From Candidatus Bathyarchaeota archaeon (lineage in GTDB: Archaea; Thermoproteota; Bathyarchaeia; Bathyarchaeales; Bathycorpusculaceae): a DNA stretch of 64,000 nucleotides. The notes under the pieces are model-generated. The model did no database searches and was not told the DNA's origin. It saw only the letters and a program-made list of their open reading frames with translations. Shown in pieces: positions 357 through 54,853 of this stretch. The position numbers and the translations under genes were made by a program. Numbering within the stretch: the stretch's first letter is position 1; each line of letters begins with the position of its first letter. The stretch lies in contig CAVYES010000004.1 of assembly GCA_963767735.1 (NCBI GenBank), positions 96,001-160,000 of the forward strand, given 5' to 3'.

Positions 357-391
357 GCGCGCTAAGTTATTTGTCATGGCACGATTAAATT

Positions 392-4964: not shown

Positions 4965-5075
4965 AAGAACCCACAACCTTTTTCCTTCAGCAACTCCTAC
5001 CCAACGCCTAAGTCAACAAAAACAGCAAATACTGCCTTATCGTTTTCAGTCCATTAACTGGTGCATAAAGCGTGC

Positions 5076-5338
5076 TGGCTTGTCCCGAAATTAGGCGTTT
5101 TGACTAACTGTATATGTCTTTGTTGTTCTCGAAGCTACGCCATCAGCATTGTCATCGGACGGAACCAGCTTTTCGATTACGTGGGGCAGATCTTAAGGCT
5201 AATCCACTGAAATTTAGCGAGCAAGCATTCCTTTTTTTAGTTATTTGCGGCTCACCTCCTAAGCGCGGCGCGGAGGTAACTCATTTGAAATGAGGCCCAA
5301 CCAAAAAATAAAAATTAAATTAATTTAGGGACAAACCA
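5076..5338. mobile_element. MITE / internally deleted IS (about 263 bp)
   Basis: Terminal inverted repeats TGGCTTGTCCCGAAATTA (5076-5093) and TAATTTAGGGACAAACCA (5321-5338). The right about 90 bp resembles 36580-36662. Confidence 0.7.
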
Positions 5339-5362
5339 ACGCTCTAACTCAATGGGTTGTCT

Positions 5363-12787: not shown

Positions 12788-12982
12788 TCGGTTCGCACCT
12801 TTTAAAAACTGTTTGAAAAACTAATTAGTTTTAGTGATTTATTTTCTTGTTGACATTATTAATGTCAAAGGAAAAAAATGACTAATCAATCATTTAGGTA
12901 GAAATGTCAACTTGGACAGAACAAAAACCGAATTAAGACGTAAAAAAGCCCATTTGGCACATATTTTAATTAATAGATACGC

Positions 12983-13000
12983 TGCCTTGTCCCGATATTA
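12983..13000 (+). repeat. Solo IS/MITE terminal-repeat copy
   Basis: TGCCTTGTCCCGATATTA after ACGC; similar to 5076-5093. Confidence 0.5.
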
Positions 13001-13324
13001 TGTTTGATAGTAAATTCTTTTCTATTTTTTCCTTCCATTTCCTTTCTAAGGCTTAGGACTCTTGGCGCGCGCGAAACGCAAAATTAAGCTCATTTTTTCA
13101 GTTTTTCGCGTAAACGTTCGCACCGTTTTTTTTCGCACTCTGGATAACCTTCCTTTGTATGAATTAACTCCAAAATCTATGCGGTCTTCAAATCCATCGA
13201 CTCACCCAAATATTCGCTTTCAAGCAGTTCTTTGAAGCTTAAATGAATAAAACCTATGTCTTCAAACTGTTCCTTCAACTTTGCCAAAATCTCTTCAGCA
13301 CTGATGCTGGTCTTGGCTAACTCT

Positions 13325-26806: not shown

Positions 26807-26871
26807 ACTACATCTTATTAAGATTAACATAGCAATCAATACCGTTTCAAAAAAAATGAAGGAAAAGAAAA

Positions 26872-29623: not shown

Positions 29624-29652
29624 AACCAAAACAAAAAAACAACCAAAATCAT

Positions 29653-29672
29653 CTTTCCCCTTTTTCTTTTTA
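29653..29672 (+). terminator. Pyrimidine/oligo-T terminator
   Basis: CTTTCCCCTTTTTCTTTTT after the PQQ gene; the same motif follows the paralog. Confidence 0.55.
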
Positions 29673-29889
29673 ATCGATCTCGAAAGGCAAAGTATTTTCT
29701 GTTTTTTCTCATAGTTTCAGCCATTATCGTTCAACAAACTATATATTTCTCATCAGCACTTAAATTTGCCCTTTTTTGCAAGTTTTTGAGAAGTTTTATA
29801 AGTGGTCGTGATAAATGGGACTCTGTTGGGCGAGAGTGTTTAGTCTTCTTGCTCAATAAAAAATAAAATAAAATGGAAGGAAAATAAAA

Positions 29890-32847
29890 ATGCAAAATCT
29901 AAAAGGTAAAACTATGGCTATTTTGATTGCAGCGATTTTAACAATTTCAATAGGAGCTTCAATGACATTAATACCAAATGCTAGTGCACATACACCTCCG
30001 TGGAATATTCCAACGTACGCCTACATTAGTGCAGCACCTAGCACTTTAGGTGTCGGTCAGACGACACTCATTTATATGTGGCTGGATCCGGTTTATGGAG
30101 CGGCTGGTGGAACGAATATCGGAGCGGTTGGAACGACTGCCTTAAATGGTACACTTGCTGGTGCAGCATTGCTTTCAAATGACCATAGATTCCACAATTA
30201 CCAGCTTACCATTACAGCGCCTAACGGTGCGGTCACAACACAGTCTTGGGCTGTTGTCTCAGACCCTACATCAGATCAGTCTTATACCTTCACTCCTAAT
30301 GCGGTCGGCACATATAATTTCACCTTTAGTTACCCAGGACAAGTCTATGGGGCGGACGGCGACGGAAACCCATCTTCAGCATTAATTAACGATACTTATC
30401 TGCCAAGCAGCGCAACAACAACACTCACTGTGCAGTCAACACAAATTCCTGGGGCTATAACTAGCGAACCGCTACCTTCCGATTTCTGGACACGCCCAAT
30501 ATACGGCGAGAACACTAACTGGTACACGATTTCGAGTAACTGGCTAGGTACAGGTGCAGCATGGTATGCTAGTGCCACTACGGGTGTATACGACTTCCAT
30601 GCAGATGCCGTAGGACCCCTAACTGGTCATGTCATGTGGACACAGCCGCTTGAAATGGGAGGAATCGTTGGCGGGAACGAGTTTCCCGCTGATACGGGAG
30701 TCGGCTTCTTCGAGGGCACAGCATACTGTACAAGATTCGGCAATCCGATAATAATCGATGGATACCTATACTATCAAGAAGTAATAGGATTCACGAATGG
30801 CGCCGTTGGACCAACCATCTGCGTTAACCTGGTGACAGGGCAACAAGTTTGGAGCAGCACCACTGTACCTCCGTTATCATTCGGTTACATATACGACCTT
30901 TATGACCCCGACGAGCACGGAGTATTTCCGCCTATACTAGTTGCAGTTGTAGGAGGAGGAATCACCGGTACACCTTTGACTTGGGAGATGATTGATGCAT
31001 ACACAGGAACCCTACTGTTCAACGTAACCAATATTCCAGGCACGGCAGCTTCTATATCAGTCGGAGCTAACACATACGTGTCAACACCGGGTCCACAAGG
31101 CGAACAGTTGCGGTATGTCTTAGCTAACGCAGGCACCGCAGCTAAGCCAGATTGGTATTTGGCTGAGTGGAACATGTCCAAACTCTGGGTATACGATATT
31201 AATCCATACACTGGCATTGGAAGTCTACCTCCATCAATTATAAATGCAACCAACGGAGTCCTCGTTAATGAGGAGTCACCAACTTCACAAGATCCTATTC
31301 CAATTACAGGCACCATTGGTATCCTGCCAAATGGAACTGAGACCTTTATTCCCTATGGTTCCACACTGACAGTTAATGCAGGCGTCGGCATCCCGGAAGG
31401 TAAAGCTGCATCCAGCGTTAATCCGACAACCACTTATGACTGGAACGTTTCGGTACCATGGCTTAACACCATGCCTGTGCAGCCCTCGGCCCTCCCCGGT
31501 ACAGATACAATAGTACCAGCACCTCCTGGATTAGATCCCGTAAGGATTATTCAAGCTCAATATGGCAATATGTTACTTTGCGAAAACGGCACTCTACCTA
31601 CTGGTTTCGGGACAACCAGCATCGGCTATCCACAACTTCCATGGACAATGTTCGCAGTCAACCTTAATGCAACTAGAGGCGCAATCGGTTCGATACTGTG
31701 GATGCAGACCTATAACCCGCCAACAGGCAACGAAACTCTCGAACAAGGCCCAGTTGACTGGCAGACCGGTGTGGTCATGTTTAGTTTACAGGAAACTATG
31801 CAATGGGAAGGATACAGTCTGACTACAGGCAACCTATTATGGGGTCCAATTACACCTCAAACTGACTGGGACTACTATGGCAACTCAGGAACTTCAACTT
31901 TAGTCGGTGAATGTGCTTACGGCAACCTCTACTGCAGTTCATTTGGAGGCATATGTTACTGCTATAACGATTTAACTGGAAAACTGCTGTGGACCTACGG
32001 TAATGGCGGCTCAGGCAACAGTACTTCCGCCAGCTTTTACACCAACTACGGTGATTATCCAACCTTCATACAAGAGATCAGTAACGGAGTAGTATACCTA
32101 GCTTCTACTGAGCACACTATCACCGACCCGATTTACAAGGGCGCGCTATTTCGAGCTGTTAATGCCACTACAGGACAACAAATATGGACCCTTTCAAATT
32201 ACCTCAGCAGTAGCACTGTTGCTATCGCAGATGGCTATGCAACAATGTTCAACGGTTATGACGACCAAATCTACACTGTAGGCCAAGGACCTAGTGCAAC
32301 CACAGTACAAGCACCGCAGATGGCTATCACAGCAGGCAGCAAGGTAGCTATACAGGGTACAGTGATGGATATTTCCGCTGGCACAAAGCAAACTGAGCAG
32401 GCAGCTGACTTTCCAAATGGTGTTCCATGTGCATCTGACGCAAGCATGCAAGCCTGGATGGGCTACGTTTACCAGCAGCAGGCAGCACCAATCAACTTCA
32501 CCGGAGTTACAGTAACGTTAACCGCTATTGATCCGAACGGCAATTTCATCACCCTCGGCACAGCCACAACTAACTCAAAAGGCTTGTATTACTACGATTG
32601 GACGCCTTCAAGCATTCCAGGCAACTACCTCGTCACCGCTACATTTGCTGGCACCAACGGTTACTGGGGATCAAGCGCAGATACCGACATGGTCGTACAA
32701 AATGCACTAACAGCAACACCTACAGCTTCACCTGTTACAGGCTTGGCATCGACAGGAAGCTTAGAGTTAGGTATAGCAGCCGTAATAGTCGTTATAATCA
32801 TAATCGGCGCTATACTGGCAATATTGCTGATGAGAAAGCGTCCATAA
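29890..32847 (+). CDS. PQQ-repeat beta-propeller surface protein 2
   Basis: Signal peptide; TGQQVW, TGNLLWG, TGKLLWTY and TGQQIW repeats; C-terminal TM + RKRP. Confidence 0.92.
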   Translation: MQNLKGKTMAILIAAILTISIGASMTLIPNASAHTPPWNIPTYAYISAAPSTLGVGQTTLIYMWLDPVYGAAGGTNIGAVGTTALNGTLAGAALLSNDHRFHNYQLTITAPNGAVTTQSWAVVSDPTSDQSYTFTPNAVGTYNFTFSYPGQVYGADGDGNPSSALINDTYLPSSATTTLTVQSTQIPGAITSEPLPSDFWTRPIYGENTNWYTISSNWLGTGAAWYASATTGVYDFHADAVGPLTGHVMWTQPLEMGGIVGGNEFPADTGVGFFEGTAYCTRFGNPIIIDGYLYYQEVIGFTNGAVGPTICVNLVTGQQVWSSTTVPPLSFGYIYDLYDPDEHGVFPPILVAVVGGGITGTPLTWEMIDAYTGTLLFNVTNIPGTAASISVGANTYVSTPGPQGEQLRYVLANAGTAAKPDWYLAEWNMSKLWVYDINPYTGIGSLPPSIINATNGVLVNEESPTSQDPIPITGTIGILPNGTETFIPYGSTLTVNAGVGIPEGKAASSVNPTTTYDWNVSVPWLNTMPVQPSALPGTDTIVPAPPGLDPVRIIQAQYGNMLLCENGTLPTGFGTTSIGYPQLPWTMFAVNLNATRGAIGSILWMQTYNPPTGNETLEQGPVDWQTGVVMFSLQETMQWEGYSLTTGNLLWGPITPQTDWDYYGNSGTSTLVGECAYGNLYCSSFGGICYCYNDLTGKLLWTYGNGGSGNSTSASFYTNYGDYPTFIQEISNGVVYLASTEHTITDPIYKGALFRAVNATTGQQIWTLSNYLSSSTVAIADGYATMFNGYDDQIYTVGQGPSATTVQAPQMAITAGSKVAIQGTVMDISAGTKQTEQAADFPNGVPCASDASMQAWMGYVYQQQAAPINFTGVTVTLTAIDPNGNFITLGTATTNSKGLYYYDWTPSSIPGNYLVTATFAGTNGYWGSSADTDMVVQNALTATPTASPVTGLASTGSLELGIAAVIVVIIIIGAILAILLMRKRP

Positions 32848-32873
32848 AGTGAAAACAAATCACCACAACTAAA

Positions 32874-32895
32874 CTTTCCCCTTTTTTAGTTTTTA
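32874..32895 (+). terminator. Pyrimidine/oligo-T terminator
   Basis: CTTTCCCCTTTTTTAGTTTTT. Confidence 0.55.
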
Positions 32896-33496
32896 AAAAG
32901 CAATGGAGAAAAGAATAGGGGCTGAGAAGGCTCTGGTTAGATTCACGATTTACTCAATCGCTCAGCATCGTGATGGCGCATTTGCATTTGCGTTCTTTTC
33001 TCCTCTAAAAGTCCCAGAGCCTCAGCAAACCCCAGAATGCTGAAAGATTTCACCAATTCATTTTCGTCTTTTTGAAAAAATAGGGCATAGTTTTGTCAAG
33101 TGGGATTTGAATAGCTCTATTCGTTATTCTGAAAATTTTCTTTTTCTATCTTATTGTTGAGAAATAAGATCAATTCAACAAGTTTTTAGGTTATTCTATT
33201 TCCTATAATGTATTTTTAGGAAATAGAGCGAGAGACAACTCAAAAAATCCTCAAATTAGTCGTATATTAATTCTCTGTCAATTACGTTATAATAAGAAAA
33301 TTGTGAATCTCGTTATTCTTAGGAAAAGCGCGCCGCGCTGCATTGTCTCTGAGCAGCGTGCTTTTGCCTAAAACCACTTAACCCCCTTCGGAACTGAAAG
33401 TAGCCAATACAGCTGTAAAATCGGGCGTTCAATGCAGCAGATTTCAGCATCTTGAAATAATGCCACTTGTTTTATTTATGGCATAGCTGAGTATTT

Positions 33497-33763
33497 ATGG
33501 CATTAATGTTCAAGGTAAAGGTCGGTAAACAGGGAAGAATTGTGTTGCCGAAAGAATTGCGGGAGGCCTGCGAATTAAACGCGGGGGATGAAGCAATTAT
33601 AATCGCAAAAGGAATGGAATTGAGCATACACCTTCATAAAGTCTCTAACGACCCAGTCAGACACTTAACAGAAACGTCGAAGACGATAGCGATAGGGTTA
33701 TCTGCTGAAAAATTAAAACAAAGGGCCAACGAGGAACGAATCAAAGAATTCCGAATGACTTAA
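33497..33763 (+). CDS. vapB: AbrB/MazE-type antitoxin
   Basis: VKVGKQGRIVLPKELRE..EL..GD; directly upstream of a PIN gene. Confidence 0.88.
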   Translation: MALMFKVKVGKQGRIVLPKELREACELNAGDEAIIIAKGMELSIHLHKVSNDPVRHLTETSKTIAIGLSAEKLKQRANEERIKEFRMT

Positions 33764-33774
33764 GGCGGATTAAC

Positions 33775-34206
33775 TTGGAGCCAACTGCACAAGCTTACTA
33801 TTTAGATTCCTCTACACTCATCCATGCTGCAGATGGAAGCGCAGAATATCACCAAGACTGCCTAAACATCATAACCAAGGCAGCAAAAGGACAAATCAAC
33901 GCAGCGATAAGCTTAGAGACCTTGGAAGAAACCCTTTTCATCCTATCAAAGCTTACAACCTCAGTAACAGCCCTTAGCGTTGCACGGGACTTCTTAAAAA
34001 TGAGTAAGATTAAAAAATACGAAATGAATCTGACGATTTTCGAAAAAGCGTTAGAAATTATTGAAACAACGCCGCTGAAAAGACCACAAGATGCAATAAA
34101 TGTCGCAACAATGCTTGAACATCACATACAAACAATAATCAGCGAAGATAAAGATTTTGATAAAGTGAACTTAATACATAGAGTTCACACAAAAGACTTT
34201 GTATAA
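33775..34206 (+). CDS. vapC: PIN-domain VapC toxin
   Basis: YLDSS, TLEE, QDAINVATM and IISEDKDFD acidic motifs. Confidence 0.9.
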   Translation: MEPTAQAYYLDSSTLIHAADGSAEYHQDCLNIITKAAKGQINAAISLETLEETLFILSKLTTSVTALSVARDFLKMSKIKKYEMNLTIFEKALEIIETTPLKRPQDAINVATMLEHHIQTIISEDKDFDKVNLIHRVHTKDFV

Positions 34207-35341: not shown

Positions 35342-35636
35342 TTAAAAGCTCCTCCCTAATTTTTGGTGTTACCATTTAAGTTGATGTTCTAAAGGTGAAA
35401 TAGGGAGTCACAATTAAGGGTTCTAAGCAGGTTACTTTTTTTAACATGTTATTTTATGGGAGCATCTGGGTTGTCAGGCTTTTCATTTTACAAAGCATTA
35501 GTTTCTGGAGGTGTTCAGAATAACTCTAATTGTTATGTTGACCCAAGCAAAAATTTCATAATTGAAAACAGAAAAAAACAAAAGCCGAAACTGCAAACGA
35601 CCAATCATCCTAAGCGCGCGCTGCGATAAGCTGGCT

Positions 35637-36515
35637 CTAAGTATTTAGAGGAGTCAGAATCAAAGTTCTGAGTATTCTAAATCCCTGCTGTATTTTTAGA
35701 ATCTCCTCTTGAGTGAGATTCAAGATTTTTACTGAGGACAAATCTTGAAAAACATTGAGGTATGAGTATTCTTCCATTTTAAACCCAGCTTTCTCGAAAA
35801 ACTGTTTTAAGTCATTTTCGTCGTCAAAAATGTTGCTCTCAAGGGCGGTCTCGGTGCTGCTAGAAATGCGGGTTAATCGTTTTTTCGCGTTCTCATCAAA
35901 TTGGGGAACTTTTTGCAAGAACTGCTTAGTGTGAACGTCCGTTGTAATCCAGAGTCCAGGGTATTTTTCAAGGAGTTCGTGGATGTTTCCGGCTAAGGCC
36001 TTTCTTTCGCCGCGAGTGAGATAAGGGAAGAGTCCTTCAGTGATGATTGCTAACGGTCTGTCATGTTTGAAAGCAACGGCTGCAGTTAATAAACTGTCCA
36101 TGCTGAAGCAGTTTGCAGGTTGAAAATAAAGATTTGGGCGCTCACTATTTAACTTGACGAGTATTGCTTCAGCGATTTCTTTTTCTTCTTCAAGAATCTG
36201 AGGTAAATCAGTAGCCACATAAACCACATCGGGGTTTCCGGTCATTGCTAAACCGCGAGGCGAAAGTCCAGCGGCTAATTCTAGAACCTGCGTAATTCCG
36301 TGTTCTGTGAGAATTCTATTAGTGACTTTATATCGTGCCTCCCACATTGGAGCGAGTCGAATCATTGATTTTGCGCTTTCATCAGCTAATTCGTGGAAGG
36401 TTTTCTCTGCCCCACTTTTCGCTGCAATCTCCTTGGTGAATGGGATATCTGTAAACGTCCTGAGGTAGGCCACTAGTTTTGCGGTTGGACTTATTTTCTC
36501 ATCAGATTCTTTCAT
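35637..36515 (-). CDS. Class I SAM-dependent methyltransferase (LCM-like)
   Basis: QVLELAAGLSPRG, TDLP and IITEGLFPYL motifs. Confidence 0.9.
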   Translation of the reverse strand: MKESDEKISPTAKLVAYLRTFTDIPFTKEIAAKSGAEKTFHELADESAKSMIRLAPMWEARYKVTNRILTEHGITQVLELAAGLSPRGLAMTGNPDVVYVATDLPQILEEEKEIAEAILVKLNSERPNLYFQPANCFSMDSLLTAAVAFKHDRPLAIITEGLFPYLTRGERKALAGNIHELLEKYPGLWITTDVHTKQFLQKVPQFDENAKKRLTRISSSTETALESNIFDDENDLKQFFEKAGFKMEEYSYLNVFQDLSSVKILNLTQEEILKIQQGFRILRTLILTPLNT

Positions 36516-36579
36516 GATAAAGCTGAAGTCTATGCTTCTGAAAAAGGTTTCTAGATTTCATGTTCATCTTGTTCGGGTA

Positions 36580-36662
36580 GGACTCACCTATAAGCTTGAA
36601 CGTACCCAAAAAATGAGCTCCCACCTCAAACATAAATACTAATTTATTTTAGGGACAAGCCA
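36580..36662 (-). mobile_element. Solo IS/MITE end homologous to 5250-5338
   Basis: AAATGAG..CCAC...ATAAA..TAA.TTA.TTTAGGGACAAGCCA then GCGCG. Confidence 0.65.
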
Positions 36663-36670
36663 GCGCGGGT

Positions 36671-36898
36671 TTAGTTTGTTAGTATTTGTTCTTCTTGTTT
36701 TGGAATCATAATTAATTCGATTTCGTTGTGGTTTGTTGGTGTTTTGTTAGTTGTTTTTTGTGGTTGCTTTGTTTGTGGCTGATTTGATTGTCCTATCCAG
36801 TAGAGGCTCCAGCCGGCTACGAAAACTATGGCAAGTATGGGTGCTAGTAGGAATATTGTGAGTTTGCTGCGTTTTTTTCTGTTGGTTGGTTTTATCAT
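36671..36898 (-). CDS. Small single-TM protein, P-x7/8-GWxLY family
   Basis: LLAPILAIVFVAGWSLYWIG. Confidence 0.8.
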   Translation of the reverse strand: MIKPTNRKKRSKLTIFLLAPILAIVFVAGWSLYWIGQSNQPQTKQPQKTTNKTPTNHNEIELIMIPKQEEQILTN

Positions 36899-36989
36899 GG
36901 GTTGCCGTTATGATCTTGTGGCTTAATTTTTAATATAAAAGCTTTATGAATTGTCAGTAACTAAAAGGCAATAGTCGAACACTCGTACA

Positions 36990-37260
36990 GATTAAATTTT
37001 AATCCCCCTCCTCCTCCTCAACGACGAGGGGTGACCTACCCTGCATGAAATGAGCATGAGAGGGCAGGGCATTACAAATCTGCCCCCTGATAATCAAGTA
37101 ATATTGCCCCCACAGAGGGGGGCAGTAAAAACCAAGTGCCCAGTAGGGTACCCAACAGGGTATTGATTCAGGGCGAACTATAGTATATAGTAATAGTATA
37201 AGGTAAGGATAAGGAATACAATAAGGAGATATTCGGAACGTCCCGAATATCTTTCTAAGG
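36990..37260. other. Hairpin- and repeat-dense non-coding island (origin/terminus-like)
   Basis: Near-palindrome GATTAAATTTTAATC; 10-bp hairpins at 37102-37127 and 37227-37252; TAGTA and TAAGG short repeats. Confidence 0.5.
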
Positions 37261-37320
37261 ACCTTTTTTCTTGGCAGGGTGGGAAAAGACTATTCTGACA
37301 AACCCAACGCGCGCGTGTTT

Positions 37321-37980
37321 CTATTCGACTGTTTTCCACGCTTTTGCAATGAAAACAATGCTCAGTATCGAAAGAATGGCTATTGCCAGTCCAATTTCCC
37401 AAACACTGTTACCATCTAATGGCACTGAAAATAATATTCCAGAAACTATTAGCAGACTTACTCCCACCATTGAAAGACCAAATATTTTTTTCTTTAGTAT
37501 CAATTTTCCAGCAGTTAAACCGCTCTTTAGCGACAATATTGCAGCTGTTAAGCCAAATGCAAATGCTAGAATGCCATAAACACCCACATACTCAAAATAA
37601 ACATAAACGCTTATTACCCCAAATATTCCAAGAAGTAAACTCATGCAAGAAGCGATTATCGTTAGAATACCAGCAATTATTGGCAGCGTTGGTACTACAA
37701 CCTTTTCTCTCAGAGCAATTATACCACCTGCAAGCAAAAGAATTAATGGCAGGATTCCATACAAAAAACCACCAAGTATTAATGCTGAGACTCCTGCAAT
37801 AATCATAAGAGCGCCACCAAGTTTCTTACCCACAGCCGCACCTGCAATTCCCACTATTCCAGCTATGAGGAATCCATATGGAATTACGGAAGTAGAAAGG
37901 GTATATAACAAAGCCACAAGTATCACGAAGATACCACCGACCACTCCCAGAATGAAACTTAGTTTCACCTTTCGTCTCAC
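37321..37980 (-). CDS. Multi-pass Gly-rich membrane protein
   Basis: About 7-8 hydrophobic helices. Confidence 0.8.
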   Translation of the reverse strand: MRRKVKLSFILGVVGGIFVILVALLYTLSTSVIPYGFLIAGIVGIAGAAVGKKLGGALMIIAGVSALILGGFLYGILPLILLLAGGIIALREKVVVPTLPIIAGILTIIASCMSLLLGIFGVISVYVYFEYVGVYGILAFAFGLTAAILSLKSGLTAGKLILKKKIFGLSMVGVSLLIVSGILFSVPLDGNSVWEIGLAIAILSILSIVFIAKAWKTVE

Positions 37981-38144
37981 TTTTCCACCTTCTCCCTAAA
38001 AAGATTCACAAATAAGTTCAAAATCAGAAGTGGGGTCTTCCACTTACCTGTATTCAAAAACCTTAACTCAGTACTCTATTTTAAGATGTGTGACTGTGGA
38101 AAAACAGTTACAAGCTTCAGCATCTTTTCTATTTCAGCTTTGTC

Positions 38145-38172
38145 CAGATTTAAGACTTATCATCAATGGAAA
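38145..38172 (+). repeat. Dispersed about 28-bp repeat (copy at 15411-15438), probable IS remnant
   Basis: CAGATTTAAGAC(C/T)TATCATCAATG(A/G)AAA; both copies translate as RFKTYHQ. Confidence 0.55.
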
Positions 38173-38426
38173 GCACTGTTTAACTGCTTAAATCACCTTC
38201 CTGAACAACTCTGCCCTTTTCCTGCCCTTATGACATACCCCTAATTTCTTCAGTTAGGTGCGTCCTAAACAAAGGAAGTGTGTGATAATTAGTATATTGA
38301 ACTGAGAGTAACTAATAATGAACTGATGGTATCACACTACCTTTCTTTCCCTGCATTCAGCGTAGTTTTCCTGTTCTGTTCAGGTATTCAGCATCAGTTA
38401 GTGGTGGCGCGCGCGTTTTCGGTTTG

Positions 38427-39296
38427 TCAAATAAGAGAAAAAGAACTGGCTGTTACCGTTATCCCATCTTGATAGCCAACTAACTTATTGCTTAGGTCTA
38501 TGCCAATAATTTTTTGTGGGCCTGTAGCCTTGAAGGAAACTGTGAATGTCTGACACCCTTTGTCGCTTGCTTGGAAAGTGTAATCAGTCGGTGTTACAGT
38601 GGCTTCGCTGTCTGTTGTCGTTATCGTAACTTTGCCAGTATAACCAGTTACTGTATTATCCTTGTCATCTTTTGCTGTGACAGTAACAGTGCCAGAAGTT
38701 CCAGCTGCTATCGTTGGGGGGAATCCAGAAACAACCAAACTTGCAACAGTTGAAATAGATGTGGTGACAGCAGGAGCAACGCGCGGGGTAACAGCAAATA
38801 ATGTGTCGGTTAAATCGTCAAGTTTTGCGTTGAATTTTCTAAATGCAAATCCTGCGAGAAATCCTATACCACAAAAAAGCAAAATACTTTTTGAATAGTC
38901 GATTTGCGTGGGTGTGCCTACAGCCCATAGTCCGCCTGCAATCAAGAGATAAGCCACCCCGCCTGCTATGAATCCAGTTATGGGTTGAAAAAAATACCAC
39001 AAAATGGCAGAAGAAGGATATTTGGCAGAAGAAGGAGGCCCCTCTTCGAATTCAAGCCAGTGGTTAATAAATCCATGTTCTATCGCATAGAGCACTCCCC
39101 CAATTCCTCCGGCAATTCCAACGTCCAAGACTGTTTTCAATACCAAACTGCTCAGGTGCATCAAATACACAAAAGCGGCAATTGCCAAAAGTGCAAATAG
39201 AGCGACTATAAGGTAAATACCGACAAAGTTCCTAGTCTGCATTCTTCTTCCCAAAAGATAATCAGGCTCTTCTTTATTCATTCTTTTGAACCTCAA
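38427..39296 (-). CDS. Four-TM membrane protein fused to a C-terminal Ig-like repeat
   Basis: GGIGG...QPITG...FLAGF TM module; LVVSG...VTVTAKD..NTVTGYTGKVTIT matches the surface-protein repeats. Confidence 0.85.
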   Translation of the reverse strand: MRFKRMNKEEPDYLLGRRMQTRNFVGIYLIVALFALLAIAAFVYLMHLSSLVLKTVLDVGIAGGIGGVLYAIEHGFINHWLEFEEGPPSSAKYPSSAILWYFFQPITGFIAGGVAYLLIAGGLWAVGTPTQIDYSKSILLFCGIGFLAGFAFRKFNAKLDDLTDTLFAVTPRVAPAVTTSISTVASLVVSGFPPTIAAGTSGTVTVTAKDDKDNTVTGYTGKVTITTTDSEATVTPTDYTFQASDKGCQTFTVSFKATGPQKIIGIDLSNKLVGYQDGITVTASSFSLI

Positions 39297-39599
39297 AGAT
39301 ACTGTGGTGGTCTTGATACTTAATTTTTTACTTTTTTACTTAAACTCAAACTATTGTAAAGCGACCACCCTCAGATTTTTTGTGACATAAGGTTTTAGTA
39401 AACTCCCTATCTCTATTCCATCCCTTTTTTCCTGTAGCAGCAAGCGTGAAAAAACGATGTTTCTTAATGCAGTACCTTCTTTTAATTTAGAAATTTTTTC
39501 TGTTCCTGCTTCCTCTCGAGCGAGCAATCCACCGGAAAAAAATGCTCCGCCTTTTTGTCTGTGTGTGTCCTCCTGCTTGCCCGCATGCTCGCTCACCTA

Positions 39600-39860
39600 T
39601 ATGCATGCATGCCTGCTTGCCGTTCGGGGGAGAGAGGGTAGGTAGGAGAATGTGTGATTGAGTGACAGAGAGAATTTGAGTGATGGAGAGATTGAGTGAC
39701 TGTAAGTGACTGAATGATGCAGTGAAAGTAAGTGATGCAGTAAGTGTGTGATGGTGAGTTCGAGAGAGAGAGCGGATTAAATTTTAATCCCCAAACCCAA
39801 ACCCAACCGCACTCTCACATATTCACATATGGTACCCCCCGTACCCGCCCGCGTGTGGTC
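39600..39860. repeat. Strand-asymmetric low-complexity repeat island
   Basis: GTGA/GTAAGTGA units, a GA run, GGATTAAATTTTAATCC, (CCCAAA)n and GGTACCCCCC. Confidence 0.6.
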
Positions 39861-40112
39861 AATAAGTCACTCTGTCACAAAAAGCACTGCCTATGTCAAT
39901 GCTAAGGTTTACTTTTTGATGGTGCGCGCTGAACCCATCTATACATAATAGCAAGTTTACTAGACTTCACAAGCTTAGTTAAGTTGACTTTGCAAAACTT
40001 AGTTAAAATTGACAATTAACGATATTGAATTTCTCAAAACTATATAATAAGTCGTGCGATAAGATGAATCAGCAAGAAACGGCAAGCGCTATTTGGAGGA
40101 AGAACGAAAAGA

Positions 40113-40334
40113 ATGCAAACTGAAGAATTAGGGTGTCTAGCAAAGAAAGTAAGAAACTCTTTGCCTAACGTGGAATCGCTTCCACTATCCACAATCTATA
40201 CCACAATCAAAGAGCAAGAGAAAACAAATATGAATTTACCAGACTTTAAGGCATTAATTTTTCATCTGACTGGCTGGGACATACCATTCCAAGTCATACG
40301 CAGACAACTTGAAATAAACCAGATAGTATGGTGA
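40113..40334 (+). CDS. Hypothetical protein (73 aa)
   Basis: GGAGGA upstream; TATA-like TATATATAA at about 40040. Confidence 0.65.
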   Translation: MQTEELGCLAKKVRNSLPNVESLPLSTIYTTIKEQEKTNMNLPDFKALIFHLTGWDIPFQVIRRQLEINQIVW

Positions 40335-40391
40335 GCGCGTGTCAGTTATGGGTTGACAGACAGTTAGACAGACTAACTGACCGCGCCGCGC
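40335..40391. mobile_element. Miniature inverted-repeat element / footprint
   Basis: GCGCG(T)GTCAGTTA ... TAACTGACCGCGC. Confidence 0.5.
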
Positions 40392-40496
40392 TTATATTTT
40401 GCGAGGGTTAATCTTTCCTATTTTGTTGTATTTTTGTGTGTTTACTCGATTCCGATACTTTCCAAGCATTAATATAGCAAGACAACGCTAGGGTAT

Positions 40497-40727
40497 TTGG
40501 GGAACGTACACTTGGATAGACTTCAAGCTGTGGCTCTCTTTAAGGAATTGGCAGCTAACGGTTTAGTTGAGCCTTCTTATGTGTCACTGTTTCAGATTGA
40601 GGCTAACGCCTTTCAAATTCAGATAAAAGGCGGTAACAAGACAGAGCTAATGGATTATGCAAAGAAATTCGGATTAACCATTGAAGAGGCTAAGGAAGGA
40701 AAATACTTAGTTATCTATAAACCCTGA
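40497..40727 (+). CDS. Hypothetical protein (76 aa)
   Basis: Open ORF followed by a T-rich terminator-like run. Confidence 0.7.
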   Translation: MGNVHLDRLQAVALFKELAANGLVEPSYVSLFQIEANAFQIQIKGGNKTELMDYAKKFGLTIEEAKEGKYLVIYKP

Positions 40728-40931
40728 CTTATTTTTTATTATTTTTTTATAAGGGGTCGCCTTTCTCATGTTTTTTACCCGCGCGCACAGTTATTCTGTG
40801 GAATACTAAATTTGAAGGTGACTATAGGGCGAAAAGTTCAAATTCAAGGTAAACCAGTTTTCTGTCTGGATAATTTTCATTATAATATTCTCTTTTGTAA
40901 TTAGAGATTTAATTCAACAGTTGGGATAGAA

Positions 40932-41114
40932 TTGCCTAAGTTAAAACAGTTCACAAGAAAGGAGCTGAAAAAATTCGATGGAAAAGAGGGAAGACCTGCT
41001 TACATCGCCTTCAAAGGACTGGTCTTTGACGTTTCAGATAGCAGACTCTGGACTGGTGGAATCCATCAAGGTCACCATTCAGCCGGAAACGAATTTGCTA
41101 AGCGCGCTTTTTAA
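40932..41114 (+). pseudogene. Cytochrome b5-like heme/steroid-binding protein, 3'-truncated
   Basis: FTRKELKKFDGKEGRPAYIAFKG.VFDVS.S.LW.GG.H.G.H.AG; ends at a GCGCGC junction before the expected second-half motif. Confidence 0.8.
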
Positions 41115-41172
41115 ATAACGTTTTAAATAATAGTTTAACTAACAAATTACCGTTAAACGAGTGCTGGTATAA

Positions 41173-41958
41173 GTGGGAAAAAGAGATTTGCAGTTTACTT
41201 CTTCGACGCAGGTTGTCATGGCTGGGTTGGTCGAGGAAGAAAAAAGAGTGTTGGTACCAGTGCAGAAATGGGATTTGCAGGTTCCCCCTTCGACGCAGGT
41301 TATCATAGCTGCTTTGAACGAGGAAGAAGGCATAGGCCCCACCATATCCGAGCTAAACAAAACATTAAAGAATTCTCGGATTTTGGTTGTTGACGGCAGA
41401 AGTACAGATCGAACCGTTGAGATTGCCAAGAATATGGGTGCTGACGTTGTTGTCCAAGATGGGTTAGGTAAGGGTGACGCGTTAGCGAAGGCGATTAAGC
41501 ACTCGGATTTAACTGTTGATTATGTGGTCATTACAGATGCAGACTATACGTATCCCGCTGAACACGTTCCTCGGATGATCCAGATACTTGAGAAGAATCC
41601 TGATGTGGGTATGGTTTGCGGTAACCGTTTCAGTGGTTACTTAGACCTGAAAGGGTTGAATTACTTTTTTTATCTTGGCAATAGATTCATAGCTTTTACT
41701 CAAAACTATCTAAACGGCGTCTGGTTAGCCGATCCGTTAACAGGGTTGCGTGTGATGCGCGCGGAAATTCTTAGACACTGGAGGGTGAAATCCAAAGGCT
41801 TTGATGTCGAGGTGGAGCTTAATCATCACGTGAAGCGAGAGGGTTTCGGCATCGCGGAAGTTCCCATTAAATACCGCGAAAGATTAGGCGAGAAGAAACT
41901 AGGCGTTAGACATGGCGCCGAAATTTTGAGGCGTATAATGTTAGAAGCAACATATTAA
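41173..41958 (+). CDS. GT2 glycosyltransferase (DPM1-like), copy A with an N-terminal tandem duplication
   Basis: AALNEE, VVDGRSTDRT, GKGDA, TDADYTY, D.LTGLR and F..EVE motifs. Confidence 0.93.
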   Translation: MGKRDLQFTSSTQVVMAGLVEEEKRVLVPVQKWDLQVPPSTQVIIAALNEEEGIGPTISELNKTLKNSRILVVDGRSTDRTVEIAKNMGADVVVQDGLGKGDALAKAIKHSDLTVDYVVITDADYTYPAEHVPRMIQILEKNPDVGMVCGNRFSGYLDLKGLNYFFYLGNRFIAFTQNYLNGVWLADPLTGLRVMRAEILRHWRVKSKGFDVEVELNHHVKREGFGIAEVPIKYRERLGEKKLGVRHGAEILRRIMLEATY

Positions 41959-42013
41959 ACGCGGCGCGATTTAAATGCCATTAATCGCATTACAGTTTGT
42001 GAGGCACAAGATA

Positions 42014-42277
42014 ATGGCAAAAGAGAAAAAGCGTCAAGTCTGCTTCCGAATCGAAGACTCAATCGTGAATGAAATGGAGAACATAAGAGATAAGACCGGG
42101 GTCCCCGTCAGCACTCAAATCGAACTCCGCCTAAAAGGTTTCACTATAACCAGCGTTAAAAAAGAAGGCACCCCGCAAGGAATTTTGCAGTGGTATGAAA
42201 GCTTTCACCAAGACGAAAACTACGCAAAAAACCTTGACGAAGCAGTCAATAGAATGCGGGAGCTGAAACTTCACTAA
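42014..42277 (+). CDS. Ribbon-helix-helix-like antitoxin
   Basis: QVCFRIEDSI..EME...KTGVPVS; TAATG overlap with the PIN gene. Confidence 0.7.
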   Translation: MAKEKKRQVCFRIEDSIVNEMENIRDKTGVPVSTQIELRLKGFTITSVKKEGTPQGILQWYESFHQDENYAKNLDEAVNRMRELKLH

Positions 42278-42723: not shown

Positions 42724-42885
42724 ATGAAGCTTGAAGGTTACAGGCTTGTTTTTGTTGTCGTGGGCTTGATTGGCGTTTTGCTTATCGCATCTCCAGAAAT
42801 TGCTGGTGCTATTCCTCGTCTTCCCGCTGAGTCACAGTTTTCTGAGCTTTATCTCTTAGGTCCAAACCAGATGGCTGCGAATTAT
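42724..42885 (+). pseudogene. DUF1616-like protein, N-terminal fragment
   Basis: TM helix + QFSELYLLGPNQMAANY, then runs into the antisense PIN gene. Confidence 0.7.
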
Positions 42886-43236
42886 GGCGTTTGTTTTTTG
42901 TGCGGCTGCTATGAACAATGCGTCATATACCGTTATGTTTTGGGTTACAGCAATGTGCATTGCTTCATCTTTTAATTCTCTTGTCGGGGTGATTGTTAAT
43001 CCGTCATATAGTTTTGTGATATCTTCGAGCGCCAAACTCGCTTCTTCCGGATTGAGGTCTTTAAGTAAATTTGTGTGCTTCCAGATGACGTTTAGACATT
43101 CAACTAACGCTATATCCACTGTGCAAAGAGTGTATCCTTTCTTTAGAAAGTCAGTGACTTCATTTCTATCTTCTTTAGAATCAGGTTCGTTCAATAATAG
43201 TTTCGAGAGAATATTAGAGTCGAGGATAAGTTCTAT
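42856..43236 (-). pseudogene. vapC: PIN/VapC toxin, probable ATA start, C-terminus truncated
   Basis: IELILDSN...ALVECLNVIWK...ITVYDALFIAAA; lacks the final T.D motif. Confidence 0.8.
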
Positions 43237-46547: not shown

Positions 46548-48544
46548 AAAATATGAAGAAACTACAAATCCTAATAATCGCATTTCTAATTTCGTTATCA
46601 ATCTGCGCATACACGGGTATGCAAGCCAGAGCTCAAACAGTCACTTTGTCTAAATTTGTCTTCAGCACTATTAGCAGTCCACAAACCGCAGGTTCTGCTT
46701 TCAGCATAACGATAACAGCTGAAGCTTCAAACGGCAAAACGGTTACGAGTTATACTGGAACTAACACTTTAACGGTGTCTTCAGGAACGATTAGCCCAAC
46801 AAGCACAACCGCATTCACATCAGGAGTTTGGACTGGTCCAGTGACGCTCTCTCAAGCGGGAACCGGCATTTCAATCTCAACCAGTGGCGGCGGTAAATCT
46901 GGAACAAGCAACACCTTCACTGTTAATCCGGCCGCTCTTGACCACTTCGTCTTTAACACTATCAGCAGTCCACAAACCGCAGGTACAGCTTTCAGCATAA
47001 CGATAACAGCTAAAGATTCTTCCGGCAACACAGTTACAAGCTATACTGGAACTAACACTTTGAGTGTTTCAACCGGAACTATTAGTCCAACAAGCACTGG
47101 TGTCTTCTCGAGTGGTGTTTGGACTGGGTCAGTGAAAGTGACTGGTGCTGGTTCAGGCGTTAGGCTTTCAACGTCTGGTTCTGGCAAGTCTGGAACGAGT
47201 GGCAGCTTCACGGTAAATCCTGGTGTTCTCGACCACTTCACTTTTAGTACTATTAGTGGTTCTCAGACTGCTGGTACACCGTTTAGCATAACGGTTAATG
47301 CTGAGGACACTTCTGGGAACACGGTTACGAGTTATAGTGGTTCGCCGACTTTGAGTGTTTCAACCGGAACTATTAGTCCAACAAGCACTGGTGTCTTCTC
47401 GAGTGGTGTTTGGACCGGTAATGTTACGATGACTGCTGCTGGTTCAGGCGTTACTATTACGGTTACTGATGGCGCTCATTCCGGCACGAGTAACTCGTTT
47501 ACGGTGAATCCTACTATTTCCGCTTCCGCTGGTGCTGGTGGTTCTATCAGTCCGACTGGAAGTGTTAGCGTCAACTATGGCGGCAGTCAAGGCTTCACTA
47601 TAGCGGCGAGTGCTGGCTACCAAATTGCCGATGTCGTTGCGGATAACGTTTCTCTGGGTGCCCTTTCATCTTACACCTTCACCGGTGTCCAAGCTTCTCA
47701 CACAATTGCGGCTGACTTTGCGATTAACACGTTCAATATTTCTGCTTCTGCTGGAGCCGGCGGTTCTATCAGCCCAAATGGGTTTGTAAGCGTTAACTAC
47801 GGTGGCAATCAAACTTTCACTATAACACCGAACACTGGCTATAACATAGTTGATGTTTCAGTGTATGGGGCTTCAGTTGGCGCTGTTAGCTCCTACACAT
47901 TCAAAAATGTTCAGGCTGCAAATACCATCTTGGCAACGTTTGCACCCACACCGACGCCATCACCATTACCAACCGCTACTCCGCCCCCTGCACCAACACC
48001 AACTCCAACGCATACACCTACAAGTACTCCTACTCCTACGTCATCACCTACTCCAACTCCGTTTGCAACAACTGTGCCAGCAACGACAGATACTGGCGCA
48101 ACAGTTGACCTTGCACTCTGCGGAAACATAACCAGCTCACAGATATTCCACGCCACAATCGCGTCATACCAACCCACCGCAACAACCACAGTGTCCTTCA
48201 CAATGATAGGGCCGAGCGGAACTGTTGGCTTTGGCAACATGACTATTCCAAAAACATCAATATCCTACGGGACAAGCCCAGTTGTAAACATAGATGGCCA
48301 ACAGGCTTCAAACCAGGGTTACACCCAAGATGCCAATAACTTCTACGTATGGTATACAACGAGTTTCGACACAAATCTCGCAGGGCAAGGTTCACAGGTG
48401 ACAGTACAATTCTTAGTACCTTCAAAGTTGCCAGCAACATCAATAGGCTCTGTACTCGTCGTCGGCATAGCCGTAATCGAAATCATTTCGGTCTTCACAG
48501 TAATAGCCGTTAGACGTTTAAGACGAAAACCTGACAACGCGTAA
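46544..48544 (+). CDS. Surface protein, 3 Ig-like repeats + 2 InlB-B-like repeats + PT linker + anchor; paralog of 21571-24663
   Basis: Near-identical signal peptide, repeats and C-terminal domain. Confidence 0.9.
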   Translation: MKNMKKLQILIIAFLISLSICAYTGMQARAQTVTLSKFVFSTISSPQTAGSAFSITITAEASNGKTVTSYTGTNTLTVSSGTISPTSTTAFTSGVWTGPVTLSQAGTGISISTSGGGKSGTSNTFTVNPAALDHFVFNTISSPQTAGTAFSITITAKDSSGNTVTSYTGTNTLSVSTGTISPTSTGVFSSGVWTGSVKVTGAGSGVRLSTSGSGKSGTSGSFTVNPGVLDHFTFSTISGSQTAGTPFSITVNAEDTSGNTVTSYSGSPTLSVSTGTISPTSTGVFSSGVWTGNVTMTAAGSGVTITVTDGAHSGTSNSFTVNPTISASAGAGGSISPTGSVSVNYGGSQGFTIAASAGYQIADVVADNVSLGALSSYTFTGVQASHTIAADFAINTFNISASAGAGGSISPNGFVSVNYGGNQTFTITPNTGYNIVDVSVYGASVGAVSSYTFKNVQAANTILATFAPTPTPSPLPTATPPPAPTPTPTHTPTSTPTPTSSPTPTPFATTVPATTDTGATVDLALCGNITSSQIFHATIASYQPTATTTVSFTMIGPSGTVGFGNMTIPKTSISYGTSPVVNIDGQQASNQGYTQDANNFYVWYTTSFDTNLAGQGSQVTVQFLVPSKLPATSIGSVLVVGIAVIEIISVFTVIAVRRLRRKPDNA

Positions 48545-48870
48545 CCAAACCCTGAAAGTTTATGTTTATACGGTTTGTTTTTGCCGGAAGGTGTGTGCTT
48601 AAAGCGTTTGGGTCTCAGATTTAACTCGCAGCTTTCCGATATTGTTCTTTAGAAGAAAATGTTAAGCGCGCAAATCTTTTTTCTTTTTATTTTGCAATGA
48701 TGATTTTAATTGATTTATGATGGCTTTTATTTTGGAGCCTTTGCTGTTCTTCTTATGGTTATCTTGCGTCATGTAGTTCCTCTATGAGGGTGAGAGGATC
48801 TTGCAATGGTTTAGTTGTTCAAGAGAGTGCTCTGAGAAATAGTTAGTTAAAAGATTTCTGTGGGCGTTGG

Positions 48871-49242
48871 TTAATGTTGGATTAATGGTGTTTGGTTCTG
48901 GATTTCATTGTGGGTTTGTGTGTTATCTCTTGTGATAGTTTTGCAAATTGTCTTAAGTGAGCATGCAGTGTAATTAAGTGTAGCTTTTCCGTTGCTTGTT
49001 AGTTTATAAATTTTTCTTGGTCTTTCGCTGTCCATGTTCCAGTCGCTTGTTATGTAGCTCTTTTTTTCCATTGTGTTAAGTATTGGATATACTGTGCTTG
49101 GTCCAAGATAGACGCCGAAGTTTTTGCGGATTGTTGTTATTATTTGGTAGCCGTGCATTGGGTGGTTTTCGAGTAGTTGCAGGATTATTAAGTCTAGTAG
49201 GCCTTTTGTGAGTTTGGCTTGAATGTTTTTTTCTATGGGCAT
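48871..49242 (-). CDS. PadR-family regulator
   Basis: KGLLDLIILQLL..PMHGYQI, STVYPIL and RPRKIYKLT motifs. Confidence 0.93.
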   Translation of the reverse strand: MPIEKNIQAKLTKGLLDLIILQLLENHPMHGYQIITTIRKNFGVYLGPSTVYPILNTMEKKSYITSDWNMDSERPRKIYKLTSNGKATLNYTACSLKTICKTITRDNTQTHNEIQNQTPLIQH

Positions 49243-49528
49243 TTTTTGTTTCTCCGTGTATGTTTGTTGTACAAGTGTACAATAGGTCCTTTTTCAGACA
49301 TATTGCCACGCAAGTATTCATATACACTACAGCCAATATAAAGCCTCTCGCATACCCTAAGCATATCAAAGCATAACAAAAAAGCCATTTCTCAACCAAA
49401 ACCAAGTCAACAACAAGCCTGCGACCATTAAAAAGCCCGTCATGAAAGCATTTAAATGGTTAAAAAACAGCAAAAACGAACTGTTCAACAATAAAACATA
49501 AAAATGCGGCTGCAGATTTGGCAGTTAA

Positions 49529-49894
49529 CTAAAGGGTTTCTGTGAAGCTTTTTAATGATTTCAAGTAATCCTGGAAGTTCAAATCGGCATTTTCTAGTTT
49601 AAATTTGAATAAAGGAATTTTCTGGTGCATATTTTTCATAACGTCAATTTCTATGAGTGATGCGCCGGTTTCAAATATTTGCTCAAGTGCGTTAACGAAA
49701 TCATCGATTCTGTTAGGTATGTCTTCTTTGGTTAGTTTATAGTTGGTCTCTAAACAGGAGTAGAGTGTGTGTTTTATTGGGGCTCCTAGTTTTGAGAAGG
49801 TTTGGTCTGTTGCTTCGATTAGGAGTTCTTGAAAGGTTGAACTGTTTAGGTTTATCTGGATTTGTGGATAGCTAACGGTTTGTGTTTGATTCAC
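49529..49894 (-). CDS. NitrOD5/DUF3227-like protein
   Basis: LIEA.D..FS.LG......LY..LE..Y.L....IP.RI..F..ALE.IF..GA..IE pattern. Confidence 0.7.
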   Translation of the reverse strand: MNQTQTVSYPQIQINLNSSTFQELLIEATDQTFSKLGAPIKHTLYSCLETNYKLTKEDIPNRIDDFVNALEQIFETGASLIEIDVMKNMHQKIPLFKFKLENADLNFQDYLKSLKSFTETL

Positions 49895-51550: not shown

Positions 51551-51632
51551 ACAGCATAATCTTACTCATCAATAAGTCTCAGAAGGCAAAGAGCTGCACC
51601 ACAGCAACAAAGTAAGGAACTGATTTAAGCCG
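51551..51632 (-). pseudogene. Short fragment paralogous to the 34658 hydrolase gene
   Basis: RLKSVPYFVAVVQLFAF*DLLMSKIM versus RLKSVPYFVAVVQHFAFGDLLMGKVM. Confidence 0.7.
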
Positions 51633-54014: not shown

Positions 54015-54016
54015 GT

Positions 54017-54825: not shown

Positions 54826-54853
54826 AACTTGTTCCAAACTAAATAACAAATAT

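Follow-up and report, generated by a model that had tools for sequence, protein, structure and literature searches.

Alternating-CG runs in a Bathyarchaeia genome as probable tips and scars of GCGCGC-tipped insertion sequences

IS1272, an insertion sequence (IS) of the IS1182 family, inserts into palindromes such as the terminator hairpins that follow genes and produces no target duplication (PMC5678879, PMC4923244). The same papers describe an element that replaces or partly deletes its target, that moves an adjacent gene by means of a poor second end, as in TnSha1 of staphylococci, and whose target hairpins are reportedly recognized without primary sequence specificity (PMC5678879, PMC4923244). 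An IS5/IS1182 element located at a large deletion, with no duplication, is also reported in a preprint (10.1101/2024.06.02.596822). Here, we analyzed a 64,000-nt stretch of a Bathyarchaeia metagenome-assembled genome (MAG), referred to as the window, in which short runs of alternating C and G recur between small genes, particularly at 35.6–42 kb (the focal array). Bathyarchaeia are abundant, uncultured archaea of soil and sediment, and to our knowledge their mobile elements have barely been described. The window corresponds to C4:96001-160000 of the genome designated G000 (3.04 Mb, 43% G+C, 10 contigs), and the relatives recovered with one window protein were soil and peat MAGs of Bathyarchaeia or Bathyarchaeota. 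As judged by titles and abstract openings, none of the papers found in a literature search for an IS with a GCGCGC tip appeared to concern one, and none of those found on Bathyarchaeia IS dealt with such tips. A first-pass annotation had noted the runs at ten focal and twelve further places and had attributed them either to repeated IS insertion with adjacent deletion or to an unknown recombinase, which would build an integron-like mosaic of accreted genes. We consider it reasonably probable that the runs are tips and leftover scars of DDE-transposase IS that are themselves tipped with GCGCGC and that were inserted in a variable accessory-gene region.

The first-pass annotation had suggested a search for a cognate transposase, and we found three IS types in G000 (types A, B and C) that have DDE transposases and carry GCGCGC as the outermost sequence at both ends. 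Types B and C, as well as a fourth type D, were identified by a genome search for DDE_Tnp_1 combined with an inverted-repeat scan. Type A was recognized from a repeated end in the sequences around the runs. It is 1112 bp long, encodes a 290-aa transposase and is present in 7 full copies (five with identity above 99.6%, one with 97.5% and one with 86%) and about 11 fragments. The five most similar copies are located at C4:173546, C4:198892, C5:15924, C5:461706 and C7:137577. Its end reads GCGCGC-TGSCTTGTCCC in all 7 copies, the inverted repeats are about 17–20 nt long, and a direct repeat (target duplication) outside GCGCGC was found in none of the 7. The type A protein matched Pfam DDE_Tnp_1 and DUF772 above the cut-offs; its match to the NCBIfam IS1182 model was partial and under the cut-off (72.3 bits, cut-off 270). 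Type B (C4:251889-253437) is about 1.55 kb long, with ends GCGCGCCAGTACGTTGCTAAAT, inverted repeats of 22 nt that are 91% complementary, and a 336-aa transposase that is 41% identical to that of type A and reached 149.2 bits with the IS1182 model, again under 270. With NF033581, the best IS5 model (cut-off 140), types A and B scored 55.4 and 114.1 bits, respectively, and neither passed; the match of type A was again partial. Type C (C4:260427-262096) is about 1.67 kb long, with ends (A)GCGCGCATGCGTGTTGAGGCTG and inverted repeats of 31 nt (87% complementary); its 482-aa transposase had no BLASTP likeness to that of type A and scored 372.6 bits with NF033551 (IS1182, cut-off 270), aligned over positions 3–487 of 488. 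Thus, type C belongs to the IS1182 family proper, and the other two types are IS5/IS1182-like. The repeat interiors of types B and C were unrelated, and the GCGCGC tip was common to all three types. Type D served as an internal control:

C5:270293-271723, C5:~355851-357281 and C10:~31082-32512: type D IS, 1431 bp, three identical copies

This element has a DDE_Tnp_1 transposase and 37-nt inverted repeats that start with GTTACCAGTAG, without a CG tip. Since types A–C differ in their repeats and keep the tip, and type D lacks it, the hexamer is specific to one IS group. In other genomes, 65 of 85 type-A-like ends had the core preceded by GCGCGC; each of the six tip positions was 89–95% conserved among these 85 ends, compared with 45% for the seventh position, and the strict type A end pattern occurred in 21 of the 61 genomes of the genus. 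A short non-autonomous element of about 182 bp with both type A ends was found at G000 C6:516864-517045. It should be noted that GCGCGC is palindromic, and therefore the two ends of one element, or of neighboring elements, also constitute 6-bp direct repeats. One type A copy lies next to a repeated intergenic module:

C5:462816-462920, C6:330389-330494 and C6:327155-327256: repeated intergenic module, to which one type A IS is directly adjoined

The module opens with GGGGTAA(N)TTTTTTACCCC, has a similar second hairpin about 60 nt further, and was found at 85% identity in several congeners.

An alternating-CG stretch was present at all 22 places listed by the first-pass annotation. Six of the ten focal sites have an alternating run of 6–9 nt (35614, 37308, 38407, 39924, 40780 and 41102), two have a doubled run (40382 and 41960), and the remaining two (36663 and 40335) have GCGCG only. 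All twelve further places have a run of at least 5 nt within about 5 nt of the listed position (the one given as 44334 is actually at 44338, and those at 7532 and 10806 are just 5 nt long), and four in-gene runs (27572, 32141, 38780 and 41757) were absent from that list. When compared with 100 dinucleotide-preserving shuffles of the window, the runs exceeded the background: GCGCGC occurred 21 times versus 8.40 ± 3.13 (0 of 100 shuffles at 21), and CGCGCG 14 times versus 5.92 (2 of 100 shuffles at 14). Within the focal 6,355 nt, there were 8 runs of at least 6 nt, versus about 0.9 calculated from the genome mean of 0.138 per kb. No run of this length was found in 13074–25322 or 48672–64000; the provirus of the first-pass annotation, whose intergenic regions were said to be free of runs, was not matched to a stretch. 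The reported proximity to stop codons was also seen: the runs at 35614, 37308 and 38407 lie 16, 6 and 12 nt downstream of a stop codon, respectively, those at 36663, 40335 and 41960 lie 0–2 nt from one, and that at 8109 overlaps one.

Similar features were observed genome-wide. Genes were called with a home-made caller, which gave a coding fraction of 0.80 and hence a crude noncoding share of 20% of the genome. G000 contains 419 runs of at least 6 nt (0.138 per kb), 169 of which are intergenic, and three 20-kb bins of contig C4 were conspicuously rich (13 runs at 120–140 kb, which includes the focal array, 9 at 160–180 kb and 16 at 180–200 kb). GCGCGC (161/348) and CGCGCG (84/196) had the highest noncoding shares among the 64 G/C-only hexamers; CCCCCC had 0.42 and the rest ranged from 0.075 to 0.36. 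Convergent gaps contained 47 runs in 108.6 kb, divergent gaps 40 in 172.2 kb and tandem gaps 81 in 323.5 kb, i.e., 0.43 runs per kb in convergent gaps versus 0.23–0.25 in the others. Distances shorter than 20 nt were found for 36 of 175 flanks at gene 3' ends versus 7 of 162 at 5' ends; among the 36 near-stop cases, 5 involved the transposase gene of an IS itself and several more were IS ends. Runs of 8–9 nt were mostly intergenic (18 of 24), and 5 of the 24 were inside the window. We found that 37 run flanks fell in a single IS-end-type cluster, versus a largest cluster of 4 across three random controls. An empirical alignment test of the flanks against four end consensus sequences (p <= 0.01) identified an IS-end-like flank at 31 of 169 intergenic runs versus 2 of 250 coding runs, and a repeat boundary was located within 6 nt of 42 of the 169, versus rates of 10.2% among the remaining G/C hexamers and 6.0% at intergenic places chosen at random. 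Together, 49 of the 169 intergenic runs (about 30%) had an IS-like flank or a repeat boundary. Besides, the doubled form CGCG-N-CGCG occurred 33 times (21 noncoding) versus about 10 times for each other spacing. The spacer was G or C in 19 of 21 intergenic versus 6 of 12 coding cases, 3 of the 21 intergenic cases were within one repeat family, and 5 of the 25 doubled runs with a G/C spacer were in the window (5264, 11199, 33329, 40382 and 41960). The extended doubled form GCGCG-GCGCGC corresponds to a full tip plus a tip short of one base.

The excess of intergenic runs was compared among congeners by taking a 400-kb sample of each of six other members of the genus, which were processed like G000. 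Transposase content was based on whole-genome searches for type A/B-like and type C-like proteins, except for G003, where the presence of IS was deduced from 12 strict type A ends, one tblastn match within the sample, and DNA matches that were either full-length or partial. In the following lines, the noncoding fraction of alternating-CG hexamers, the noncoding share of other G/C hexamers and the density of intergenic runs are given for each genome.

G067: no type A, B or C transposase found; 2/27; 0.10; 0.036 per kb
G001: one fragment and one type-C-like gene; 2/38; 0.06; 0.034 per kb
G014: fragments only; 8/43; 0.10; 0.079 per kb
G003: IS present; 18/47; 0.15; 0.156 per kb
G068: six type A/B-like and one type-C-like; 29/51; 0.17; 0.267 per kb
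G055: five transposase matches; 33/53; 0.14; 0.243 per kb
G000: seven full type A copies and types B and C; 245/544; 0.15; 0.278 per kb

The intergenic CG-run excess therefore varies within the genus, and it tracks these IS. This observation is evidence against the runs being a terminator or binding site that is conserved. As a separate observation, the coding fraction given by the same caller was 0.79–0.81 in the genomes with IS (G068, G055, G003 and G000) versus 0.85–0.86 in G067 and G001.

The focal array consists of the following features, in order of position, with neighboring toxin-antitoxin-type genes given at the end.

35614..35621: GCGCGCGC run, 16 nt past the methyltransferase stop; no IS-end-like flank (p 0.99)
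35637..36515, minus strand: LCM-type (leucine carboxyl) methyltransferase-like gene, 292 aa; PF04072, E 1.8e-7; not a DNA methyltransferase family
36519..36667, minus strand: type A left-end remnant (IS positions 2–155); 8 BLAST matches to IS copies, 75–78% identity
36671..36898, minus strand: gene for a 75-aa small membrane-type protein; many congener copies; paralogue at G000 C5:297885-298194
37296..37315: TGACAAACCCAA-CGCGCGCG, left arm of an inverted pair; pairs with 38410–38429 over 20 nt, 85% complementary, CG runs inward
37321..37980, minus strand: gene for a 219-aa membrane protein; no Pfam family
38407..38429: GCGCGCGCG-TTTTCGGTTTGTCA, right arm of the inverted pair; 12 nt past the stop of 38427–39296
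38427..39296, minus strand: gene for a 289-aa protein; no Pfam family
39924..39929: GCGCGC run upstream of the 73-aa gene; not at the matching border in 3/3 homologous loci
40113..40334, plus strand: gene for a 73-aa protein; homologues of 78–88% identity, scattered, in at least 6 congeners
40335..40392: mini-palindrome TGTCAGTTA...TAACTGAC; flanks GCGCG and CGCGCCGCGC
40780..40786: CGCGCGC run, 53 nt past the stop of 40497–40727; a 35-nt match to C5:543876 begins directly after it
40932..41114, plus strand: truncated cytochrome-b5-like gene, 60 aa; PF00173 profile positions 1–29 of 74 only
41102..41107: GCGCGC run, precisely between the cytochrome-b5 homology and the promoter of the glycosyltransferase paralogues
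41173..41958, plus strand: family-2 glycosyltransferase (GT2) gene; PF00535, E 1.7e-20; four paralogues in the genome, with no CG runs at their borders
41960..41968: doubled run CGCGGCGCG, 2 nt past the GT2 stop; paralogue homology stops here
33497–34206, 41975–42277 and 42856–43194: toxin-antitoxin-type genes, namely MazE/AbrB-like plus PIN, ribbon-helix-helix (RHH) and a second PIN

Two places in the array were informative with regard to IS activity. The remnant at 36519–36667 was detected by nhmmer (E 1.6e-9) and by the IS-end test (p 0.0015); its tip reads GGGACAAGCCA-GCGCGG at 36650–36668, and its inner edge adjoins the start codon of the methyltransferase gene. The second is the break in the cytochrome-b5-like gene at 41102, where the first-pass annotation had observed that a run coincides with the truncation. 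The closest orthologue, in G076, has 89% protein identity and a frame that stays open for 262 aa. At this position G076 reads GAATTTGCTAA followed directly by AGGAATGG, and the window reads GAATTTGCTAA followed by GCGCGC and then TTTTTAAATAA, i.e., the break comes directly after GCTAA. The TTTTTAAATAA side belongs to a promoter region that is common to four GT2 paralogues. The hexamer at 41102 thus sits at a rearrangement junction and is absent from the other copies of both partners, the orthologue and the GT2 paralogues. As for the array as a whole, genes at 35637–39596 are on the minus strand and those at 40113–42277 on the plus strand, and the 6.8-kb stretch had no syntenic counterpart in 40 relatives, in which its units matched scattered places. 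The gene units are not MITE-like (MITE, miniature inverted-repeat transposable element), in that no paired IS terminal repeats were detected by the empirical flank test. We also rejected unit 2 as a MITE with IS-like ends: what looked like a left repeat is the end of the coding sequence of a small conserved gene, and the homologues of this gene differ there. Two side observations concern the same region. The 5' part of the GT2 gene contains an 87-nt tandem duplication (41155–41241/41242–41328, 78% identity) that is apparently absent from the paralogues. A palindromic motif, GATTAAATTTTAATCC(CC), occurs beside GTGTGTG or CCAAACCC tracts at 36985–37003 and 39774–39806 of the window and at G000 C5:~298190, C6:~330560 and ~332060, upstream of small genes, with matches of about 30 nt and 92–97% identity in several congeners.

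Further IS-derived or IS-like sequences were found elsewhere in the window.

357..362: GCGCGC after ATTAGCAACAAGCTG (type B end-like); the repeat match 213–361 stops here; p 0.04
5068..5347: MITE-like pair of type A ends (5070–5098 and 5315–5342) that face each other, no transposase
12977..13073, plus strand: type A right-end fragment (ACGC-TGCCTTGTCCCGATATTATG...), ending at the 9-nt run at 13065; E 1e-5
33328..33350, plus strand: GCGCGC-CGCGC-TGCATTGTCTC doubled run upstream of the MazE/PIN pair; weakly IS-end-like flank, p 0.21

Inside the MITE-like element, a doubled run, GCGCGGCGCG at 5263–5272, replaces CAAGC of the IS, which has no CGCG there. The run at 7532 is a piece of an IS end, and the one at 33328 agrees with the earlier remark that runs lie upstream of toxin-antitoxin loci. 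Two other features of the window were observed. An inverted 1.1-kb stretch (21722–22829 and 47262–48373, 83.5% identity) lies in two large genes of 1030 and 666 aa, which have internal repeats and no Pfam family and which bracket the CG-rich region. In addition, 26849–33041 encodes members of a family of proteins of about 985 aa with a weak PQQ/BamB-like repeat match, for which there are more than ten paralogous loci genome-wide (73–84% DNA identity).

If the runs are tips and scars of these IS, their distribution may be explained as follows. The elements would insert repeatedly at tolerated places, i.e., in intergenic DNA, mainly in short spacers after stop codons and in convergent gaps, and those that land in intergenic DNA, especially past stop codons, would be the ones to survive, which matches the observed position bias. 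Joining of one tip to another, by slippage or microhomology repair, could then delete an element, or whatever lies between two of them, and leave a solo GCGCGC, a partly collapsed run of 8–9 nt or a doubled GCGCG-GCGCGC scar. Solo runs would thus be scars, and the hexamer would be borne by the element rather than duplicated from the target. The 35.6–42 kb array would then be an ordinary variable region of toxin-antitoxin, membrane, GT2 and methyltransferase genes that was cut and rejoined by IS, and not a platform for gene capture. A stronger version may also be entertained, although we regard it as doubtful: the GCGCGC carried or regenerated by the IS could serve as a portable joining site, with scars of 6–11 nt left by the joining and with scars and tips drawing the next insertion, and the resulting self-reinforcing cutting and stitching could shuffle and truncate single genes, as an analogue of a cassette array without a dedicated recombinase. 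Single genes might occasionally be moved in a TnSha1-like manner, one example being the methyltransferase unit with 150 nt of the IS left end still attached.

Several observations weigh against the interpretation of the runs as IS tips and scars. Most intergenic runs (120 of 169, about 70%) are solo: they lack an IS-like flank and do not lie at a repeat boundary. In the focal array, a statistically supported IS end was found at just 1 of the 10 sites (36663), and the link of 35614, 39924, 40780 and other focal sites to IS is indirect; the sequences at 37308 and 38407 resemble IS repeats by eye, and this candidate was rejected by the empirical test (p 0.53 and 0.37). The comparison of the cytochrome-b5-like gene relies on an orthologue from another species with 86% identity. 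The congener comparison included six related genomes that are not independent of each other, each represented by 400 kb and processed with the home-made caller, and in one of them (G068) the excess was strong (29/51) despite just 3 strict type A ends. Finally, the outermost base differs in 2 of the 5 near-identical type A copies (A...T and G...G), and in two pairs of abutting elements (at C4:198892 and at C8:6449) a single run is common to both partners. These two features fit a target duplication of CGCG better than an element-borne tip, and a candidate 4-bp palindromic CGCG duplication is compatible with all 7 type A copies. An empty site was sought in three ways: flanks of one IS copy in 60 congeners yielded no contiguous flanks, flanks of all 7 type A copies within G000 matched other repeats only, and for 53 IS loci of other genomes no two flanks matched adjacent places in G000 among the matches listed. 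An empty site was thus found for no IS copy.

These last points lead to the alternative that the runs are pre-existing (G)CGCG(C) targets at which the IS insert and duplicate CGCG, with solo runs being unoccupied or vacated targets of IS-independent origin, such as imported DNA. The varying outermost base would then be a host base outside the 4-bp CGCG, and the single run of abutting elements would also fit. In addition, the same hexamer is found in all three IS types although their transposases are diverged or unrelated and their repeats differ, and an identical hexamer next to differing repeats is the usual look of conserved target specificity, as in IS5 and IS630-type elements. Two papers also state, citing Siguier et al., that some IS1182 members target palindromes (PMC5678879, PMC4923244). 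However, the samples of IS-poor congeners showed no intergenic excess (2/27 in G067 and 2/38 in G001), and a host-made supply of targets is thus not seen in these samples. Moreover, neither the uninterrupted cytochrome-b5 orthologue nor the IS consensus contains CGCG where the window has GCGCGC or GCGCGGCGCG, and borders of homologous units elsewhere are devoid of runs. On balance, we consider pre-existing targets rather unlikely as the source of the runs. The part of the first-pass proposal that invoked repeated IS insertion with adjacent deletion gained support from the tips, the remnant in the array and the link across congeners, and the part that invoked an unknown recombinase did not, as no integrase or recombinase family was found in a Pfam scan of 20 ORFs located at 21.5–48.5 kb of the window. 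Site-specific recombination at GCGCGC that assembles one-gene cassettes in an integron-like array could account for the fact that homology of several units to other loci begins or ends at runs (36667, 39935, 40789, 41108 and 41960) and that the units are single and scattered in the genus. The coincidence of homology and run borders is largely due to the runs directly following stop codons, where coding homology ends regardless. In addition, matching borders of homologous units had no runs (0/3 loci for the 73-aa gene, 0/4 for GT2 and 0/2, stop-proximal, for the 75-aa gene), the genes are on both strands, and runs are genome-wide and many are at IS ends. The integron-like mosaic proposed earlier was therefore not borne out, and a cassette system of this kind seems very unlikely.

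A host signal, such as a transcript 3' end or terminator, a protein-binding site or a Z-DNA-forming element, would be consistent with the enrichment within 0–19 nt past stop codons and in convergent gaps. We nevertheless rejected the terminator or host-signal reading, which appears even less likely than cassette recombination, since the excess was missing from the samples of G067 and G001, two congeners with the same G+C content. Some of the near-stop cases are also accounted for by IS transposase genes and IS ends, direct reading revealed no consistent T-run or hairpin after the runs, and the runs were not kept at the homologous gene ends of three units. We also set aside GCGCGC as a restriction-modification target: it was not depleted (observed/expected 1.20, 4th-order Markov), and the methyltransferase of the array is of the LCM type. 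Chance or assembly artefact is the least credible source. The motif is a short 6-mer, and two of the ten focal sites have 5 nt only, but none of the shuffles reached the observed GCGCGC count and the noncoding share was the highest of all G/C hexamers, so that chance is refuted for the enrichment. With regard to assembly, the region was present in 4 public sequencing runs as short, low-depth contigs of 150–356 nt with no cover at 40619–41019; the best of these datasets contained 0.30 of the sampled words, and none reached half. Independent contigs from them spanned 36663, 39924 (contig match 39678–39964) and 40335–40392 with 0 differences. No alternative joints were seen among the contig matches listed for the region, and 35614, 37308, 38407, 40780 and 41102 were not bridged among them.

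When compared with known systems, the focal array resembles an integron in that small, unrelated genes follow one another and have their homologues dispersed over other genomes. It differs from an integron in that no integrase was found among the ORFs scanned, genes are present on both strands, the boundary motif is missing at homologous units (0/9 loci) and occurs genome-wide at IS ends, and no attC-like element was seen, no attC model having been run. The doubled runs, CGCG-(G/C)-CGCG, resemble a cut-and-paste footprint, i.e., two copies of a 4-bp site around one end base. Excision of Tc1/mariner elements leaves a target copy, a few end bases and another target copy; unlike in that case, no excision event was observed here, and we know of no description of such footprints for IS1182/IS5-like elements in archaea. 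Type A is similar to IS5 in having DDE_Tnp_1 and DUF772, a length of about 1.1 kb, a single ORF and a possible 4-bp palindromic CGCG duplication. IS5 duplicates a 4-bp YTAR/CTAG target, whereas the candidate target here is G+C-only with six conserved positions, the NCBIfam IS5 models are under cut-off, and the duplication is only a candidate. With IS1182 and IS1272, the elements share a DDE transposase (type C is over the NCBIfam IS1182 cut-off), terminal inverted repeats and the lack of a duplication outside the element, and with IS1272 in particular the association with palindromic sequence and with places just past genes. Types A and B are much shorter than IS1182 elements (290 and 336 aa) and fall under both the IS1182 and IS5 cut-offs. 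If the runs are indeed tips and scars, the fixed hexamer edge and its scars would be a simple marker of past transposon activity and rearrangement junctions, and GCGCGC runs that follow genes in such genomes should not be annotated as terminators or gene-capture sites. In contrast to IS1272, all copies of the three IS types, whose host is an archaeon, are bounded by one fixed palindromic hexamer, GCGCGC, which is also left as solo and doubled copies in intergenic DNA, and these elements would then represent a sequence-specific counterpart to the structure-specific palindrome targeting of IS1272.

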